A DNA stretch of 7,736 bases from a virus (taxonomy: Duplodnaviria; Heunggongvirae; Uroviricota; Caudoviricetes), in IMG/VR virus record IMGVR_UViG_3300029762_000084. One strand, written 5' to 3'. Shown here in pieces: positions 1-7,695 of the stretch. Position numbers and translations under genes: made by a program. The notes below the pieces were generated by a model, which had not been told where the DNA came from, searched no databases, and worked only from the letters and a program-made list of their open reading frames with translations. Each line of letters starts with the position of its first letter. Positions within the stretch are counted from its first letter, which is position 1.

Positions 1-545
1 TCCCTGCATTCAACAAAGCACTGGCAACATTTTCAGGAAGTATCGTATCGCTCATTGCGACCAAAGTTTTACGCTATACAGCCCTAAGAACGAAAGAGCT
101 TCGTTCCATGCAATGGAAGAACGTCGATTTTGAAAACAGGATTATCACTATCGACGCCAGTGTGATGAAGGGACGCAAGATTCATGTTGTCCCGATGTCG
201 GACCAGGTGGTTGAACTTCTCACTACGCTAAGCTCCATCACTAAACCAGTATCAGAGTTTGTTTTTGCCGGGCGCAACGATAAGAAGAAGCCAATCTGCG
301 AGAACGCGGTATTGCTTGTGATCAAACAAATCGGCTATGAGGGTCTGGAAAGCGGTCACGGATTCAGGCATGAATTCAGCACAATTATGAACGAGCACGA
401 ATGGCCTGCTGACGCTATTGAAGTGCAACTGGCACATGCCAACGGCGGATCTGTGCGTGGAATTTACAACCATGCTCAGTATCTCGATAAGCGCAGAGAA
501 ATGATGCAGTGGTGGGCGGACTGGCTTGATGAAAAGGTTGAGTGA
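1..545 (+). CDS. int: Phage integrase (tyrosine recombinase), C-terminal catalytic domain; 5' end lies upstream of the window
   Basis: Frame is open from position 3 to the TGA stop at 543-545 (the track ORF 108..545 is the part after an internal Met). The translation carries the tyrosine-recombinase catalytic residues: Arg in ALRTKEL, His-x-x-Arg in HGFRHEF, and the Tyr region LAHANGGSVRGIYNHAQY. The C-terminal MMQWWADWLD is typical of P4/CP4-57-type integrases as I recall them. Confidence 0.9.
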   Translation, partial: PAFNKALATFSGSIVSLIATKVLRYTALRTKELRSMQWKNVDFENRIITIDASVMKGRKIHVVPMSDQVVELLTTLSSITKPVSEFVFAGRNDKKKPICENAVLLVIKQIGYEGLESGHGFRHEFSTIMNEHEWPADAIEVQLAHANGGSVRGIYNHAQYLDKRREMMQWWADWLDEKVE

Positions 546-567
546 ACGACATTATGAACAACAGGAG

Positions 568-608
568 AACACACAAAACCTCGCAAAAATTACAAAGATT
601 TGTGTGTT
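568..608. repeat. Perfect 10-bp inverted repeat (AACACACAAA ... TTTGTGTGTT) with a 21-bp spacer, between the convergent integrase and tailspike stops
   Basis: Read directly: 568-577 aacacacaaa and 599-608 tttgtgtgtt are exact reverse complements. The stem is AT-rich, the loop is long and there is no clean U-tract, so it is a weak intrinsic terminator at best and could instead be a protein-binding site or part of attP. Confidence 0.5.
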
Positions 609-626
609 AGTACTTATCATTGCGAT

Positions 627-2573
627 TTAAAGAATAATTCTTTCAACCTTCCAAGTTGCAGATCTACTTCCTGAAATTCCAACTCCATTTGAATCTTTGA
701 GAAGAATTCTAAATGATGTTTCTGTTACCAAATCATACGTTGCATTTATTGCTGCGCCATCTCCTATCGATATTGAGATAAAATCAGGCACAACTCCAAG
801 TCCGTGAGTTATTATTTGTCCATTTGAATAAACCCCAGTTCCTATTTTAGTCGTTGCATACCCGGCATTGTTTGCAAGGACAACATTAACCGAATTTGCT
901 CCTAATTTAGCAATCTTCCTATCAGATGAAATCTCTGTAGATTGTATTGCATTATTTGAAATAACTGCATCTTTTATAGCCCTGAAATCTCCAGGTGTTC
1001 CTGATACAGCATTAACAAGTATTGCATACTGCATACTTCTATCACTTCTTTTATTGCCGAAAGCATTACCGCAAATTGTTGTCCCGGTAAATCCAGATGC
1101 TCCCGTGTTATCAAGAAGAATTCCGCACCTATATGTATTTGATGTATCAGAAGGCAAACCTATACCTCTTATGGAATTATTGGATACTATATTATTATCT
1201 GGCTTGACATTTGCATTATTGCAGTAAATGCGAATTCCAACATCACAAAATGCATCTAATACATTATCAGATATAACATTACCCGCTCCCCACACATCAA
1301 TACCCATAAACGAATCAGCACCATCTCCAAAAAATTTATTTTGAGTAACTATTGTTCCGCTACCCCTAATCAATATAGCAGGCCTTGGAATGCTTGAAGT
1401 CTTTTTGCTATCATTGTAGCCATGATTATCGTTTATATGAGATTCCCCCCCCGCACTATCTATGCAGCAATTACACGAATCTATTATATTTTTATTTATC
1501 CTTACATAGACAGAATCGTGTTTTATACCTGTAATAAAATTTGATATGGAATTTGATACAAAACTAGTTGCCTTACATGGCAATGAAACGCCATGTATAG
1601 CGTCCTTAGACGCTCCTATGGCAACAAAATGTATCCCTGTAACAATTGCTGGGTTCTCATTAGATGATGTGTCACCTATGGTAATAGCAAAAGAATTCTC
1701 ATCTTCAGGACCATCAATTGTTAATATCGTTTGTGGCGTATATCCTTGAGATATTTGCGATCCATTTCCTGAACCAAACCCTCTCATACTTACAAAAGAT
1801 GGGATTCTTAGTTTTTCTGTTACTCTACAGTTGCCCCCCCAAAAAAATTCCTCTTTAACATGGGCAGCGGCCAGCATGATTGGAATTGTATCATCTTTAA
1901 CTCCATCAAGCGTCGCTCCATAATTTCTAAGGTCATTGGTTTCATCCCCATTTAAATAACCAATACATCTCCATCCTGTTGAGGTATATCTGGCAAATTT
2001 ATCATCTGGGGGAACAGTAAAAGGAGGAACTGTCATTTCTCCTCCAGTTATTTCATTTTCATATACCCAAAACAACCCATCATAATCTTTGATTGCGCAT
2101 CGGTTGTCACGAATGATATTTTGCTTGTCATAGTTCCCACAATATGAAAAACCAGTTGCTAATTTCTGTAGATTTGTTCCTGATGCTGAGTTTATTAATG
2201 ATGCGCCATTTTCGCTAGTTAATACATTATTTAGAGGGTCAGGATCATACTTCAGCACATTAGGAAAATAGAACTGCTGCGCACCGTACGCATCATAAAC
2301 AGCCATAGAATGGCCTTGCACGGTTACGAATTTGGCAATCTGTCCGTTATATACAGGATACCCGCCAGCGTTAATGATGATTGGCTGTGCAACAGGAACG
2401 TGAGAACCGTCTTCATTCTCTACATAAACCTGAATCTGGTTTTCAGGATTTACCGGGTCAGTGTCAATTTTTCCGATATAAATTTTGCCATTGGCAACCG
2501 CTTTAAAAGAACGCGCCATAGTGAAGAGTTGCGAAGGCATGCTTACCACAACATTTGCGGTGATATCTGACAT
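627..2573 (-). CDS. Tailspike protein: P22 gp9-type N-terminal head-binding domain plus a divergent beta-helix-like receptor-binding/depolymerase domain
   Basis: From the Met at 2573 the protein begins [59 protein letters not shown]...[15 protein letters not shown]...NVLKYDPD, which closely matches the head-binding domain of P22 tailspike gp9 as I recall it. The remaining ~530 aa is N/G/S/I/T-rich and repetitive, consistent with a parallel beta-helix. GGAG sits about 8 nt upstream of the 2573 ATG; the track ORF runs to 2621, but homology favours 2573. Stop is TAA at 627-629. Confidence 0.9.
1445..1452. repeat. Homopolymer tract C8 on + strand (G8 on the tailspike coding strand)
   Basis: Read directly: gattccccccccgcac. 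It is in frame within the tailspike and encodes the Ala-Gly-Gly-Glu of ...DSAGGESH... Confidence 0.95.
1834..1847. repeat. Compound homopolymer tract C7A7 on + strand (T7G7 on the tailspike coding strand)
   Basis: Read directly: ttgcccccccaaaaaaattc. It is in frame within the tailspike and encodes ...EEFFWGGN... Confidence 0.95.
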
Positions 2574-2694
2574 TTCATTGCTCCAGACGAATGATATGAT
2601 GCAACCATGATGTGATTGCATACCGAAATGGTACTATTGAGTATTTATCCAGTAGGTTACGATGCCATTCCACCCAACTGGTGAGGCATCAAGG
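2574..2694. promoter_or_regulatory. Divergent intergenic region between tailspike and Mnt-like gene; candidate promoter/operator region
   Basis: A 121-bp non-coding gap between two divergent start codons. It contains ATGAT(G) direct repeats and a 6-bp inverted repeat, atgcaa-N11-ttgcat, at 2599-2621. I could not identify a sigma70 -35/-10 pair with confidence by eye. Confidence 0.35.
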
Positions 2695-2961
2695 ATGTAC
2701 AGCAAATACGATGAGGCGCAGTTTCACTTGAGACTTCCGCATGAACTCCACGCGAAAATTAAGCAGCGTGCGAAGATGAATAACAGATCGCTGAACTCAG
2801 AGATAATTGCAGCGATTGAAGAATCGTTGGCTAAACAAAGCTCTGCATCCGTTTACATTGACGATGCAGAGCGTATGGCAGAACAACAATCTGATATGGT
2901 TAAGAAAATGGTTTTTGAAACGCTTAAGACCATGTATAGCAATAATAAAAAGGAAACATAG
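2695..2961 (+). CDS. mnt: Mnt-like ribbon-helix-helix transcriptional repressor (Arc/Mnt family)
   Basis: The N-terminal QFHLRLPHELHAKIKQRAKMNNRSLNSEIIAAIEESL fits the Arc/Mnt RHH pattern of beta-strand plus two helices. The C-terminal DAERMAEQQSDMVKKMVFETLK closely resembles the P22 Mnt tetramerisation region (NDAERLADEQSELVKKMVFDTLK, from memory). GAGG lies 8 nt upstream of the ATG at 2695; the track's upstream ATG at 2662 has weaker support. Stop is TAG at 2959-2961. Confidence 0.8.
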   Translation: MYSKYDEAQFHLRLPHELHAKIKQRAKMNNRSLNSEIIAAIEESLAKQSSASVYIDDAERMAEQQSDMVKKMVFETLKTMYSNNKKET

Positions 2962-3031
2962 AAATCTAGTTTCCGGCTAAAATGGCATTGCCTTCATGCT
3001 ATCCTGTGAAAAACTAAGGAGAGTTAACCAT

Positions 3032-3517
3032 ATGAAAAAATTACTGTTAATTATCCCGCTTCTGCTGGTTGGATGCGCAAAAGTAAGTGACTATCAAGCA
3101 AGTTGCGAACAACGCTATCAAAAGCTTAGCGATATGGCTAATTGCCTTGATGCCAGTGTGAAGAACGACTCACGCATGGCATCAGCACCAACACCTAAAC
3201 TATATGTCCTTGCTGCAAAGATGCTCGGGCAAGGTGTCGATGAAGGCAAGATAAGTGACGCACAGGCAAGACTTGAGCTTCAGAATCTTTATGTTCAATT
3301 ACAAAGCCAAGAACAAGCCCAACAAATAGCACAAAGCCAAGCATTCCAGCAGGCTTTATTGAATTATCAGGCTGTAAACACAATGCAAGCGATCGAGCAA
3401 AAAGCGAGACAGCCTGTTATAACTCAACCCTATCCAACACGAGTTGACACTTACACAAACTGCAATTCAGGATTTGGAAACACGGTAACATGCAACAGTA
3501 GCAGTAGCATCAGATAA
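3032..3517 (+). CDS. Putative lipoprotein of unknown function (161 aa) with a Gln-rich predicted coiled-coil centre
   Basis: AAGGAG lies about 8 nt upstream of the ATG at 3032. The N-terminus MKKLLLIIPLLLVGC is a typical signal peptide with an L-V-G-C lipobox. The residue after the lipid Cys is Ala rather than Asp, suggesting outer-membrane sorting. The mature protein has four further Cys and a Q/A-rich heptad-like segment (LELQNLYVQLQSQEQAQQIAQSQAFQQALLNYQ). The track's upstream start at 2996 has no RBS. Confidence 0.75.
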   Translation: MKKLLLIIPLLLVGCAKVSDYQASCEQRYQKLSDMANCLDASVKNDSRMASAPTPKLYVLAAKMLGQGVDEGKISDAQARLELQNLYVQLQSQEQAQQIAQSQAFQQALLNYQAVNTMQAIEQKARQPVITQPYPTRVDTYTNCNSGFGNTVTCNSSSSIR

Positions 3518-3607: not shown

Positions 3608-5605
3608 CTATTCTGACAACGAATCAGACTTCGCACCCTGCGTCAGTGCATTAATCGCTTTTTGCGCTTGCTGCATGGCTTTCTCAAACGCTGTCGATCC
3701 GCGTGGTGTGTTTGCCATTCGTAGCATTGCATTTCTGAATGGCTCACTCTCATAGGCGCGAGTAAGAAGTCCGTAGCTTACCGCTGCGCCAGTTGTCGCC
3801 GGGTTCATTGCTGTCCCATACCCGATAATGAACGGGATGGTTTGCTGCCCTGTTGGTGTTGTTACTGCCGCTTTTGCAGCCTGCTGCGTGGATTGCAGGT
3901 AGTTTTTCAATCCTTTCAGATAAGCAGCGTCCTGCCCCTTAAATGTGATGCCAGTCTGGTTTTGCAGGATGTTAAGCTGCCGAAGGAACTGGTCAGGGGA
4001 TCCGCCAGATTTCTCCATCGCCTTTCCAATGATGCCATTGCGCATTTGCGCCCTGCCAACACGACCAACTGAGTTATACAGCGTCTTAATTTCCGATTTG
4101 TTCTTGCTGAATAGCATGTTGTTGACAACTTCCGGCGTCAGGTCTCCTTTCATGAGAACATTCTTCAGCCTGGTATTCTTTAGTTTCGCCGCTTCGTCAG
4201 CGTAGACGGCATTGGCCTGCTGATATTTACGGAGAGTATCGTTGCCAAGATTCTGACCAATGGCACCATTGATATCGTCAGTCATTGCCTTGTAAACGCG
4301 CTGAATGGCAGCATCGGAACGGTTTGGTAACACTGGTCGCTCACCCTTCACGTCCATTCTGAACTGGCTGCGCAGGTCGCTTAATTGCTTCAAATCCAGA
4401 TTTACCGGACCATCAGGGCCAGCATTGCGAACAAGCTCATCACGATATGACTGAAGTTTTGAAATTGTCTCGTTATCAGCTACCTTACCAAGCTTCTGCA
4501 GATTAGATATCTCAGTATCAATCTGCTGAATTGCTCGCGCAGGCTGAATGTTTACTCCAGCCATAGCATTCTGAACCTGCTCCAGTCGATTACCGGCGGC
4601 ACGACGAATTCCTGATGTTTTCGCTTTAAGGCTGTCAATAACAACAGCTGGATCATACTCACCGAATTTATCAGCAAATCTCTGCACCAACTGGCTTCTC
4701 GCTTCCTGTTGCGTTGCTCTCATTCCGCTTGTGCCAGCCAGGGGGATATTTTCCGCTGTCGTCTGCGCCATTTTCCCGACGCGGGAAGTAGGCTGTAACA
4801 GGTCTGTGGTGTGCAGAGGAACTCCTTCACGCTCTGCAAATCTGATAGCCTGCTGCGCTTCTGGCGCAATAGCACCACGAACGCCACGATAAGCAGCACC
4901 TAATCCACGTCCGGCAGCGTTAATAGCACCGCCAGCCAGCACACCAACGCCTAAATCGGTGGCGAGTGCTTCCGCATCATCTTTCGCACTATTTGCAGCA
5001 AGTGATCCAACTGCGTTTTCAGCGAGAAGGCGAGTTGCACCCTGAGCAATTCGACCAGCAAGTGTTGGTGCCTGTGTTGCCGCTCTCTCAACGCCAGCAG
5101 GAGTGAGGTAAGGCAATGCTTCAGCAAATACCCTTCCCTCTGTCGTTTGTGGAGTCAGCGCGCCTTGCTGAAGGCCAAAGTCCTGCTCTAATCCCTGCGT
5201 TGTTACTCGTGGCGCTGGTTGATATGTACCATCGCCAATGCCGAGTTTACCGCCAGCCCAAGCCGCCGCGCTTGTTACAGCATCGGCAACTGATGCAGGT
5301 ATGTTTGCCACGTTCACGCCAGCCTGCACCAGTCCGCGACCAGTCTCTTTTACTGCTTCGCCAAGATCAGACATAAATCCACTTTGCTGTGGTTGTTGCT
5401 GTGCTACTGGTTGCTGTGTCTCCACTGGCTGCACAGATGGCAATGGATAGGCAGCATAGAAAGCTTGCTTAGCCTGCTCTGCATTTTCTCCGGCTTGCGG
5501 GGCCACGACTTCATTGAAGTATTGCTCCTGAGCCTGCGCTTTTTGTTCTGGTGCTAACGCCTGATACTGTGGAGAGGCGATAACATCTTTCCATGCTTTA
5601 GCCAT
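3608..5605 (-). CDS. DNA ejection (injection) protein, P22 gp16-like
   Basis: A 665-aa ORF that is last in a gp7-gp20-gp16-ordered block. Its ATG overlaps the upstream stop (TAATG at 5603-5607), with GGGGTGA upstream. The protein is Ala/Gln/Gly-rich and low-complexity. The assignment rests on synteny and size (P22 gp16 is about 609 aa, from memory), not on a sequence search. Confidence 0.65.
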   Translation of the reverse strand: MAKAWKDVIASPQYQALAPEQKAQAQEQYFNEVVAPQAGENAEQAKQAFYAAYPLPSVQPVETQQPVAQQQPQQSGFMSDLGEAVKETGRGLVQAGVNVANIPASVADAVTSAAAWAGGKLGIGDGTYQPAPRVTTQGLEQDFGLQQGALTPQTTEGRVFAEALPYLTPAGVERAATQAPTLAGRIAQGATRLLAENAVGSLAANSAKDDAEALATDLGVGVLAGGAINAAGRGLGAAYRGVRGAIAPEAQQAIRFAEREGVPLHTTDLLQPTSRVGKMAQTTAENIPLAGTSGMRATQQEARSQLVQRFADKFGEYDPAVVIDSLKAKTSGIRRAAGNRLEQVQNAMAGVNIQPARAIQQIDTEISNLQKLGKVADNETISKLQSYRDELVRNAGPDGPVNLDLKQLSDLRSQFRMDVKGERPVLPNRSDAAIQRVYKAMTDDINGAIGQNLGNDTLRKYQQANAVYADEAAKLKNTRLKNVLMKGDLTPEVVNNMLFSKNKSEIKTLYNSVGRVGRAQMRNGIIGKAMEKSGGSPDQFLRQLNILQNQTGITFKGQDAAYLKGLKNYLQSTQQAAKAAVTTPTGQQTIPFIIGYGTAMNPATTGAAVSYGLLTRAYESEPFRNAMLRMANTPRGSTAFEKAMQQAQKAINALTQGAKSDSLSE

Positions 5606-6993
5606 TAATCACCCCATAGTGAAGAAAAGTTACTGCTGGCTGCTGGCTGTGATACCTGTGCAGGTTGAGATTGCTGCCGCTGAGATTTACCAACATTAAC
5701 GTTATATTGTTGGTTGTAATTGTTGGTGTATTCCTTAATCTCACGAATCGACTGCTGCATAGCCTCCGGGCTTGAATAGTCAACCTGCGGCATCCCCTGA
5801 AAATACATCTTCGCTTCTGCAACGGTGTTAATACCACTGGCACCCATGTCCCTTGCTGCCGCCACACCCTGATTCTGCATTCTGCCCTGAATCCGTTGTG
5901 CTGAGTTATATAACTGGCGCTGCTCTTTTCCTGTTAATCTGCTGCGAACATCAGCACCAATTGCTGGATTACCTGCACCGCCTGTCATTCCTGTCATGAA
6001 ATCGAGAGCAGAAGCGTCTGCATTTGCGATCGCTTCGATATCCTTCTTCATGGCATAGTTTTGAGCTGATGCAGACGATGTTGCAGGCGCTGCGATTGAA
6101 CTGGCAGGAACGCGAACCATATTCCCCTCGTTGTCGATGCCTTCGTAGAACGCATTTGCCCCAGCGCCGTGAAGTTTCCCGCCAACCGTTACAGTTCTGC
6201 CATCTGATAACTGAACTGTACGCTCATCATTCCCAGCGGTTCCTCTTGTTGACGCTCGCTGCATTGCCAAATCCTGCCCGCGTCGCGCAGTAGAAGCAGA
6301 TAAGTCCTGACCGCGCATCGTGATGTTCTGGCCTCGTGCTGTTAGCGCCTCGCCAGCCTGATTGCTGCGGATTGTCTCTGCAAGTTTTCCGCGATCAATC
6401 TCACGACCAGCCATCTTGTCCTGAACATTGAAGTAATCAATCGGACCAAGAGCAGCCATTCCAAGGTGATCAACAAACTCACCAAATCCTGAAGGATTCT
6501 GCTGATACATCTGAGCAACGTTATTAGGGTCAACACCGACGCGCGCCAGCTCATTGGCGTTGTTTTGCAGCCATGATTGCATTGCTTCTGGAGAAGATGA
6601 CGCAAGACGTGCGCCAGCCGCTAATGTACCGATAGAATTACGCTGGTCTTCATCAATGAATCCCATGCCTTTACGAACGGATTCAATCTGGTCTGGATAT
6701 TGAGTAGCCAACTGACGCAAAGCACCGCGATCACCAGAAGCATAAGCATTAGCGTATGCCTGCTGAAATTCTTTCTGCCGCTGAGCCTGCTTTTCCTGCT
6801 GAAACACCACCGCAATACCTGAAAGGCCTTGCAAAGCAGTCAGCCCAACATTGTTAGCGCCTGAACGCTCAATATCATTGTTCTGCCTGATAAGCTGAAG
6901 CGTATTGCCGATGTCATTTACGCTCGGAGCGTTTGAGTTGACGCCGCCGATACCAGCCAACAATCCGCCGTTTGTTCCTTGCCAAGTAGCCAT
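5605..6993 (-). CDS. DNA ejection (injection) protein, P22 gp20-like
   Basis: A 462-aa ORF (P22 gp20 is about 471 aa, from memory) lying between the gp7-like and gp16-like genes. GGGG lies 5-8 nt upstream of the ATG at 6993. Stop is TAA at 5605-5607. Confidence 0.65.
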
Positions 6994-7002
6994 GATTACC
7001 CC

Positions 7003-7695
7003 TTAAAACAACGAGCCAAGCAATCCGATACCAGCACCAATGCCAGCGCCCCAAGGCGTTGATGTTCCCAAAAGGCTGGCAAGACCTGCACCGGCAATCG
7101 CACCAGACGTGCCACCGCTAATTGCAGTCTGAAGACTTGATGGTTTATTGGCATTAGCAGCGGCAAGTGCTGCGCTTTGCTGTGCAATGCTGCTCATGTT
7201 GTTGGCGTACGTCTGCCCGGCGTTTGCCTGACCTTGCAGCGCACCAAGCCCAACGTTTGCCAGATTGTTGTAATTGCTCATCTGATTTGATAACCAAGAC
7301 TGACCGAGAGTCGGCGCGATCGTAGCCAGTTGATTGCTTGTGGCTGTCGAACCAAGTCCACCCGTCGCCTCCGCAGCAGCAAGACTCTGGTAACGCGCCT
7401 GATCTGCAAGGTCTTTATACTGCTGAGAGTTGTAATACTGATTAAGTGCCTGCCCCTGACCTTCTAAACTGGAAAGATTCTGAAGCTGGTTAACATACTG
7501 CTCCGCAAGCGGCGTGAACGGAGCAAGGTTTTTCATGATCGTCTGCCACTGCTGATTTTGCAGGTCTGCGGCATACTTCTGGGCTTCTGCTGCATACTTT
7601 GCGCTTTTATCAGAGCTACCACCTTTCCCGCCTTTTTCAGGGCACCAAGGTTCCTCGCCGCGCAGTTTTCTGCCCAGCTTAAATGCATATAACAT
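7003..7695 (-). CDS. DNA ejection (injection) protein, P22 gp7-like
   Basis: A 230-aa ORF (P22 gp7 is about 229 aa). Its N-terminus MLYAFKLGRKLRGEEPWCPEKGGKGGSS resembles the P22 gp7 N-terminus as I recall it. The C-terminus is Gly/Ala-rich and hydrophobic (GAIAGAGLASLLG...GAGIGAGIGLLGSLF), consistent with a membrane-inserting ejection protein. GGGAGA lies upstream of the ATG at 7695. Confidence 0.7.
   Translation of the reverse strand: MLYAFKLGRKLRGEEPWCPEKGGKGGSSDKSAKYAAEAQKYAADLQNQQWQTIMKNLAPFTPLAEQYVNQLQNLSSLEGQGQALNQYYNSQQYKDLADQARYQSLAAAEATGGLGSTATSNQLATIAPTLGQSWLSNQMSNYNNLANVGLGALQGQANAGQTYANNMSSIAQQSAALAAANANKPSSLQTAISGGTSGAIAGAGLASLLGTSTPWGAGIGAGIGLLGSLF

Follow-up and report, generated by a model that had tools for sequence, protein, structure and literature searches.

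We analysed a 7,736-nucleotide stretch of viral DNA (IMG/VR record IMGVR_UViG_3300029762_000084; hereafter the window), focusing on the tailspike gene that it carries. The window, the integrase-side end of a P22-like prophage, contains the 3′ part of the integrase gene intS, the tailspike gene, an Arc/Mnt-type repressor gene, a lipoprotein-like open reading frame (ORF) and the ejection genes (Table 1). The tailspike gene occupies the genome position of P22-type tailspikes, past the ejection genes gp7/gp20/gp16 and the immI region (mnt) at the integrase-side end of the prophage, and the gene order after the ejection genes is matched in annotated prophages. A closely related annotated prophage has the same layout, following tRNA-Arg (argW) and intS, and the gene belongs to a temperate phage of the P22-like (Lederbergvirus) type that is integrated at argW. 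The tailspike ORF was listed as 627-2621 on the minus strand, but the start at 2621 is probably not used and the ATG at 2573 is favoured, because a GGAG Shine-Dalgarno sequence lies 7 nt upstream of it and RefSeq copies are annotated with the same start.

P22-like phages are a textbook case of a conserved head-binding domain combined with interchangeable receptor-binding modules, and swapping such modules is their usual route to a new host range. Our results indicate that the window tailspike is very probably a two-part mosaic of this kind, in which a P22-type head-binding domain is joined to an exchanged, polysaccharide-recognising β-helix module that came from outside the P22-like gene pool.

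Table 1. Coordinates of the tailspike gene, its predicted parts and neighbouring features in the window.
Feature	Position	Strand	Basis
3′ part of intS	to 545	+	ORF list, Pfam/PHROG
Cassette exchanged recently (final ~85 bp of intS, hairpin, tailspike gene, ribosome-binding site)	460..2587	.	~99% identity
Long hairpin 3′ of stop codon	568..608	-	RNA fold -20 kcal/mol, z -3.8, 0/200 shuffles as stable
Tailspike gene, 648 amino acids (aa)	627-2573	-	ORF list; start as annotated in RefSeq copies
Tailspike stop codon	627..629	-	ORF list
Predicted C-terminal β-sandwich, aa 571-648 (NG..ITHGL..P.FI...F.IL.KDS.G...W)	630..863	-	AlphaFold2
Predicted right-handed parallel β-helix, aa 211 to ~570	864..1943	-	diverged cap motif at its start; predicted
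SCNCCID motif, aa 366-372	1458..1478	-	family alignment; on consecutive β strands of predicted helix
Linker and small N-terminal β subdomain, aa 113-210 (predicted)	1944..2237	-	AlphaFold2; close homologues only
Recombination junction head-binding/receptor-binding, DPD/PLNNVL	2230..2242	-	megablast ends, DNA alignment, change point in third-position GC
Head-binding (virion attachment) domain, aa 1-112, up to NVLKYDPD	2238..2573	-	Pfam PF09008
Shine-Dalgarno GGAG	2581..2584	-	7 nt upstream of ATG 2573; read from sequence
Arc/Mnt-type repressor gene	2662-2961	+	Pfam
Lipoprotein-like ORF	2996-3517	+	between mnt and gp16
Ejection genes gp16, gp20, gp7	3608-7695	-	Pfam P22_gp7, Inj_translocase; gp16 = PHROG DNA transfer protein

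Junction and base composition of the tailspike gene

The first-pass annotation of the window, made from its sequence, had proposed that the match to the P22-type head-binding domain ends right after NVLKYDPD and that the remainder of the protein is unlike P22 gp9. The Pfam Head_binding profile (PF09008) is matched over its full length by residues 1-112 (E 2.1e-66), and no other Pfam family was found in the tailspike, with no match at all in residues 116-648. A PDB-wide sequence search aligned P22 gp9 (2xc1, 8tvr) and the Sf6 tailspike (7sg7) over residues 1-117 only, and the phmmer alignment to P22 gp9 is confined to residues 1-114. No colinear similarity to the receptor-binding part of P22 gp9 (~125 to 666) was detected in the module past the junction. 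Both proposals therefore stand, and the boundary had been placed correctly to within a few bases.

The break is equally sharp in the DNA. The head-binding portion is ~98% identical to that of other P22-like prophages at argW. We aligned the tailspike genes of the window, HK620, Sf6, CUS-3, Sf101 and two E. coli prophages; these seven P22-like genes are near-invariant up to ...AAGTATGATCCTGA (KYDPD) and then unalignable, at about window position 2238, identity being lost after CCTGA. Megablast matches from other prophages, in thousands of E. coli genomes, stop at 2230, 2239 or 2242, and at the protein level similarity to tailspikes of lytic phages begins at L114. Similarity to other P22-like tailspikes does not run on across the domain boundary but breaks abruptly at the KYDPD junction.

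Base composition changes at the same place. The receptor-binding part (627-2228) has a GC content of 36.7% and a GC content at third codon positions (GC3) of 22.7%; the corresponding values are 43.8% and 41.7% for the head-binding part and 50-52% and 45-49% for the ejection genes. GC3 differs significantly between the head-binding part and the rest of the gene (Fisher p = 2.7e-5) and between the receptor-binding part and the ejection genes (Fisher p = 6e-21). The maximum-likelihood change point of GC3 falls at codon 108 (log-likelihood ratio 9.45, equalled in 0/500 permutations). GC content recomputed along the gene is not uniform, and its drop coincides with the junction; earlier hand counts of 27-38% in the module against ~55% in the ejection genes had the direction and position right and slightly exaggerated the contrast.

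It is very improbable that this AT-richness is not foreign and instead reflects amino-acid composition or a local mutation bias in a gene native to the lineage. Such an origin would fit the GC content of the module at first and second codon positions (42.7% and 44.8%), which is close to the phage average, and the unrelated module of ZY22049, a tailspike of an E. coli P22-like prophage, also has a GC content of 36.8%, which means that an AT-rich receptor-binding part is not peculiar to the window gene among P22-like tailspikes and that low GC may be general for such modules. However, the ZY22049 module is itself another insert at this junction and is unrelated to that of the window, the drop in the window gene lies mostly at third codon positions, where amino-acid composition does not explain it, and it occurs within ~5 codons of the point where all likeness to other P22-like tailspikes, in DNA and in protein, is lost. 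Moreover, the same module family is found on unrelated phage chassis (see below). Together these observations largely refute a native origin of the AT-richness. The modules of HK620, Sf6, CUS-3 and Sf101 have GC contents of 44-46%, and GC3 in the window module is far lower than in any of them.

Relatives of the module and its movement between phages

A search of 5.8 billion protein clusters returned six proteins at 45-48% identity and one 99% cluster, whose 91 members are all from E. coli wherever they are named; HMMER, run exhaustively against 1.84 billion representatives, gave 13 matches. Apart from matches to the head-binding domain, the phage collection yielded a single match, to the tailspike of the phi92-like Justusliebigvirus KKE7M (an Escherichia phage); this tailspike is 43% identical to the window module and colinear with it from L114 to the end. 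The nearest relatives of the C-terminal domain alone are tailspikes of lytic phages at 43-48% identity (KKE7M and the uncultured T7-like and siphovirus homologues P0002-P0007). They share with the window the colinear module including SCNCCID, ESH..NHGY, NKFFGDG and the C-terminal sandwich, but they differ in their Tail_spike_N adaptor (with or without a T7 tail-fibre N domain), in their lytic chassis, and in their modules of ~45% GC with no DNA-level similarity to the window. At less than 50% identity, their glycan specificity may differ from that of the window module.

Across the family the module stands behind at least five kinds of N-terminal adaptor, namely Head_binding (in the window), Tail_spike_N, T7 tail-fibre N, an endosialidase N-extension and Mtd_N; the Tail_spike_N adaptor of P0002-P0007 is of the TSP1/gp66 type (PF18668). 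The homologues lie in a T7-like podovirus (at the gp17 position), on a siphovirus-type 57-kb contig and in the phi92-like myovirus KKE7M. Modules on T7-like, siphovirus and other lytic chassis are 90-94% identical to one another on chassis that are unrelated, and the comparison points to a very recent spread among lytic coliphages. The window module forms a separate branch at 45-48% identity from these. It is also the most AT-rich member of the family: homologue module DNA has ~45% GC and a GC3 of ~40%, independent of the GC content of the chassis (37% to 51%; 37% around the KKE7M tailspike gene). We observed this constancy for the modules of loci L003, L005 and L007 as well as for KKE7M.

Horizontal acquisition of the C-terminal module, which had been proposed from its AT-richness, is thus supported by three independent lines of evidence: the homology break at KYDPD, the coincident GC3 change point and the presence of module homologues behind other adaptors on unrelated chassis. 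The very low GC3 suggests, as far as base composition can tell, that the module was long resident in an AT-rich phage genome. No donor closer than 48% was found among phage records, the 5.8 billion clusters, the HMMER representatives, IMG/VR (2 loci) and GTDB species representatives, and a blastn-distant search of the module against 50,697 phage records gave no match.

A second, more recent layer of exchange is visible among P22-like prophages. The module DNA is present in 2 of 5426 complete E. coli genomes, and its flanks in 2765. The two carriers are OkiPb01694, whose prophage adjoins ybhB/bio, and A35, whose prophage adjoins torT; the neighbouring genes are diverged or unrelated, and the immI region of both prophages is of another kind, containing arc and ant. 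Identical copies of the protein were also found in an argW prophage whose immI region has arc and ant, and on two gut-metagenome contigs laid out like the window. Because the segment from 460 to 2587 is ~99% identical at three attachment sites in P22-like prophages with differing neighbours, the whole gene and its downstream hairpin move as a cassette between these prophages. Window positions 1-2587 are 98.3% identical to IMG/VR contig L013 (IMGVR_UViG_2529293138_000011), with divergence beyond.

The immI region of the window consists of one Arc/Mnt-type gene, with neither arc nor an antirepressor gene, while the prophages of loci L001, L002 and L020, which carry the same tailspike, have mnt, arc and ant. 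A 3′ stub of intS (window 460-545; 6836-6919 in L001 and L002) travels with the cassette and is annotated as an N-terminally truncated pseudogene in the bio/ybhB-site and torT-site prophages. Another copy of the stub, 87% identical (L004 1792-1861), lies between intS and the unrelated ZY22049 tailspike. On the left-hand side, crossovers for tailspike exchange seem to fall in the 3′ end of the integrase gene.

The tailspike gene is under purifying selection, since alleles differ by 16 synonymous and only 3-4 nonsynonymous codon changes. We considered and rejected the possibility that the gene belongs to a decaying prophage remnant, given its intact ORF, the identical copies in several samples and the synonymous excess.

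These data are best explained by two successive events. In an old domain swap, recombination at the KYDPD/linker junction very probably brought in the module from a source other than the P22-like gene pool; more recently, the whole gene, together with the hairpin and the integrase 3′ stub, has moved between P22-like prophages. Residues 1-112 dock the trimer on the tail hub, and this part stays near-identical because of its fit to a conserved virion. Residues 113-648 represent the exchanged module, comprising a linker, a small β subdomain, a right-handed β-helix and a C-terminal β-sandwich.

P22 gp9, Sf6 gp14, HK620 gp9 and the CUS-3 tailspike share with the window protein the head-binding domain (85-91% identity to the E. 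coli/Shigella members), the junction at KYDPD, the gene position after the ejection genes and immI region, and the overall plan of head-binding domain, linker, β-helix and C-terminal domain. They differ in that the C-terminal 536 residues of the window protein have no detectable sequence similarity to theirs beyond the helix cap. The mechanism is ordinary and documented; what is new is a rare, uncharacterised β-helix module with low GC3 and an apparent link to serogroup O8 (see below). The survey of Pas et al. 2023 (PMC10408124) describes receptor-binding domain exchange across Lederberg-, Justusliebig-, Kayfuna- and Kagunaviruses and others, again with a conserved anchor and a swapped receptor-binding domain, and reports that prophage tailspike type correlates with host serogroup; the window module is absent from the first part of its Table S1. 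Boundary sequences around the CUS-3 tailspike, in CUS-3 and K1 phages, are annotated in CP000711 (PMID 16689790). The window gene adds a rare β-helix family to the P22-like repertoire and offers a clean example of two exchange time scales, an old swap at KYDPD and a recent whole-gene move, while leaving the general understanding of such systems unchanged.

Predicted fold and conserved residues of the module

The structure of residues 116-648 was predicted as a monomer with AlphaFold2 from an alignment of 18 sequences. This model has a predicted local distance difference test (pLDDT) score of 83.2 and a predicted template modelling score of 0.77, and contains a small β subdomain, a long run of short strands and an all-β C-terminus. 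It replaced a prediction of the full-length protein from 8 sequences, which was unusable (pLDDT 52). Foldseek searches against the PDB and against viral models agree with a β-helix fold. The family profile picks up the NVK.FGAKGDG.TDD cap motif of solved β-helices (GH55, phi29 gp12, phi92 gp150 and Sf6), and among the 18 family members there are 9 matches to PF12708 and one to PF13229. The model and the fold search thus support the earlier proposal that the C-terminal part is a pectate-lyase-like domain, with the predicted right-handed parallel β-helix that defines this superfamily (PF12708/PF13229 type).

The three parts of the module are not equally conserved. Residues 113-210 are common only to P0002-P0007 and the KKE7M tailspike, and distant family members align from about residue 210; this region is modelled as short β strands with pLDDT values mostly of 56-85, falling below 50 in the first ~20 residues. 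By comparison, the C-terminal residues 571-648 are conserved family-wide, and their all-β prediction has pLDDT values of 84-92 except for the last few residues. Residue 210 (codon 1944-1946), at the boundary of the small N-terminal subdomain and the helix cap, is D in the window allele and in L020 and Y in all other alleles and homologues (LNGYxET).

Within the helix, D372, N383 and D417 are invariant among the 18 family members, and C367, E377, H384, R403, K413, D440, R509 and D511 are conserved in at least 90% of them. The endorhamnosidase activity of P22 gp9 depends on the catalytic residues E359, D392 and D395. In the window module, the family-conserved carboxylates D372, E377, D417 and D440, which are predicted to lie on central rungs, are candidate catalytic residues; their conservation would be compatible with enzymatic activity, without proving it. 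A profile-profile comparison (hhalign) of the family with the Sf6 tailspike aligned the cap region only (66 columns, probability 92%), and the comparison with the HK620 tailspike aligned nothing.

The first-pass annotation had also singled out a Cys-rich motif as unusual for a β-helix tailspike. The motif is present at residues 365-376 of a protein with 12 Cys in total, but it is less of an oddity than had been thought, being partly family-conserved and showing no sign of a metal site. C367 is found in at least 90% of the 18 family members and C370 is frequent (SC..CID), while C369 is limited to the close subfamily. Read plainly, SCNCCID would sit in the helix as a structural element. The possibility that CxCC binds metal or forms disulfides was set aside, as C369 and C370 are not conserved family-wide.

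Candidate receptors and neighbouring features

By analogy with characterised tailspikes, the helix would most likely bind a host surface polysaccharide and cleave it endolytically, so that the virion reaches the outer membrane. We infer the enzymatic cleavage, the catalytic residues and the receptor from comparative evidence. The suggestion that the host-surface specificity is unlike that of P22 is upheld, because the module has no detectable sequence similarity to the gp9 endorhamnosidase and its carriers are E. coli.

The carriers point to a common surface type. OkiPb01694 (from cattle, Japan) and A35 (from a rat, Australia) both have an O8-type wzm/wzt mannan locus and, between galF and gnd, an identical Wzx-type cluster (rfbBDAC, a flippase, an acyltransferase and four glycosyltransferases). 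Four isolates at NCBI with the tailspike protein are named O8:H49, and a fragment of the protein occurs in MHI813, a Shiga toxin-producing strain of E. coli, which is O8:H19 (PMC3491183). O8 is thus the type of every carrier whose serotype or O-locus is known, and the receptor would be one of two surface polysaccharides of such strains, the O8 mannan or the polymer specified by the rare galF-gnd cluster. Over 30.7 kb at the O-locus, 3 mismatches separate the two complete-genome hosts, while the prophages of these hosts differ by ~2.5% and lie at different sites; accordingly, one host clone was lysogenised twice by diverged phages with the same tailspike. This fits a tailspike matched to the surface of the clone, but it does not identify the target polysaccharide.

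That the receptor is not the O8 mannan but a polymer made by the rare rhamnose-type Wzx cluster, as a K-antigen or second O-type, is a tangible possibility, albeit on the unlikely side. The cluster occurs in only 5 of the 5426 complete genomes, including both module carriers, and the O8 wzm/wzt genes are found in 308, of which only 2 have the module; in addition, a tailspike subtype resembling G7C RBP1, which Pas et al. predict to be O8-specific (PMC10408124), has no similarity to the window module. On the other hand, the two hosts are one clone at this locus, so that the co-occurrence represents a single event, and the other carriers, labelled O8:H49 and O8:H19, point to O8 as the common factor. 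The cluster may also be inactive, as no wzy gene is annotated in it and remnants of ISAs1 and a group II intron lie at its gnd end. In strain 200164, which also has the rare cluster, the O8 wzm gene is truncated beside an IS3 fragment and a group II intron. The loci covered are L016 12629-16562 and L018 19914-23847 (host chromosomes) and L019 94-2746.

As to what the module does, an alternative to an endoglycosidase is unlikely, whether a lyase acting on the polysaccharide, an enzyme that deacetylates or otherwise modifies it, or an adhesin that only binds. The more specific idea that it is an O8-mannan-specific endo-mannosidase like that of coliphage Omega8, representing a new β-helix glycoside hydrolase family, is decidedly speculative and, in our judgement, quite unlikely to hold in full. 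Phage Omega8 has an endo-α-1,3-mannosidase that breaks down the O8 antigen (Prehm and Jann 1976, cited in PMC5380687, where the enzyme sequence is given as ND). The two systems are alike in that Omega8 carries a virion enzyme of an O8-specific coliphage and the carriers of the window module are O8 wherever the serotype is known; they differ in that Omega8 offers no enzyme sequence to compare, the likeness being one of host serotype. If the idea were correct, the window gene would provide the first sequence for a virion enzyme of the Omega8 kind, known from the biochemistry of the 1970s, and the 13 representatives among 1.84 billion proteins would be the only other members of the family.

Several observations weigh against a foreign, polysaccharide-degrading β-helix module as the reading of this gene. 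The nearest relatives are 48% identical and have ~45% GC, so an AT-rich donor is one that we infer. The window protein alone falls below every Pfam and PHROG threshold outside the head-binding domain, its modelled structure derives from a monomer prediction with 18 sequences, and catalytic residues cannot be transferred to it by homology, because only the helix cap aligns with solved or characterised enzymes. The near-clonality of the two complete-genome hosts at the O-locus weakens the serotype-association statistics. Finally, the tailspike copy on L013 appears to lose its frame at about codon 377, within the conserved GGESH motif; the aligned segment is 2588 nt there and 2587 nt in the window, which fits a 1-nt indel, and the copy is either an inactivated prophage gene or affected by a sequencing error. 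The mosaic origin nevertheless remains the reading that we prefer. As tailspike receptor-binding modules set phage host range, they are relevant to serotyping, to the design of phage cocktails and as glycan-cleaving reagents, and the window module suggests a link to O8-type E. coli that can be tested.

Neither PHROG nor PADLOC assigned a function to the neighbouring ORFs or to the module. The lipoprotein-like ORF has a lipoprotein signal, MKKLLLIIPLLLVGC from M13, and matches PHROG 6067 (unknown function, E 9e-109), with no match in Pfam or PADLOC. The interval between mnt and gp16 is where morons such as sieA or hkcB/C lie in P22-like phages, and the product of this ORF is a candidate for a lipoprotein that acts in superinfection exclusion or surface modification. 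The hairpin downstream of the tailspike stop codon was missed by a simple terminator scan and was seen by RNA folding; it is a probable terminator of the late or tailspike transcript.

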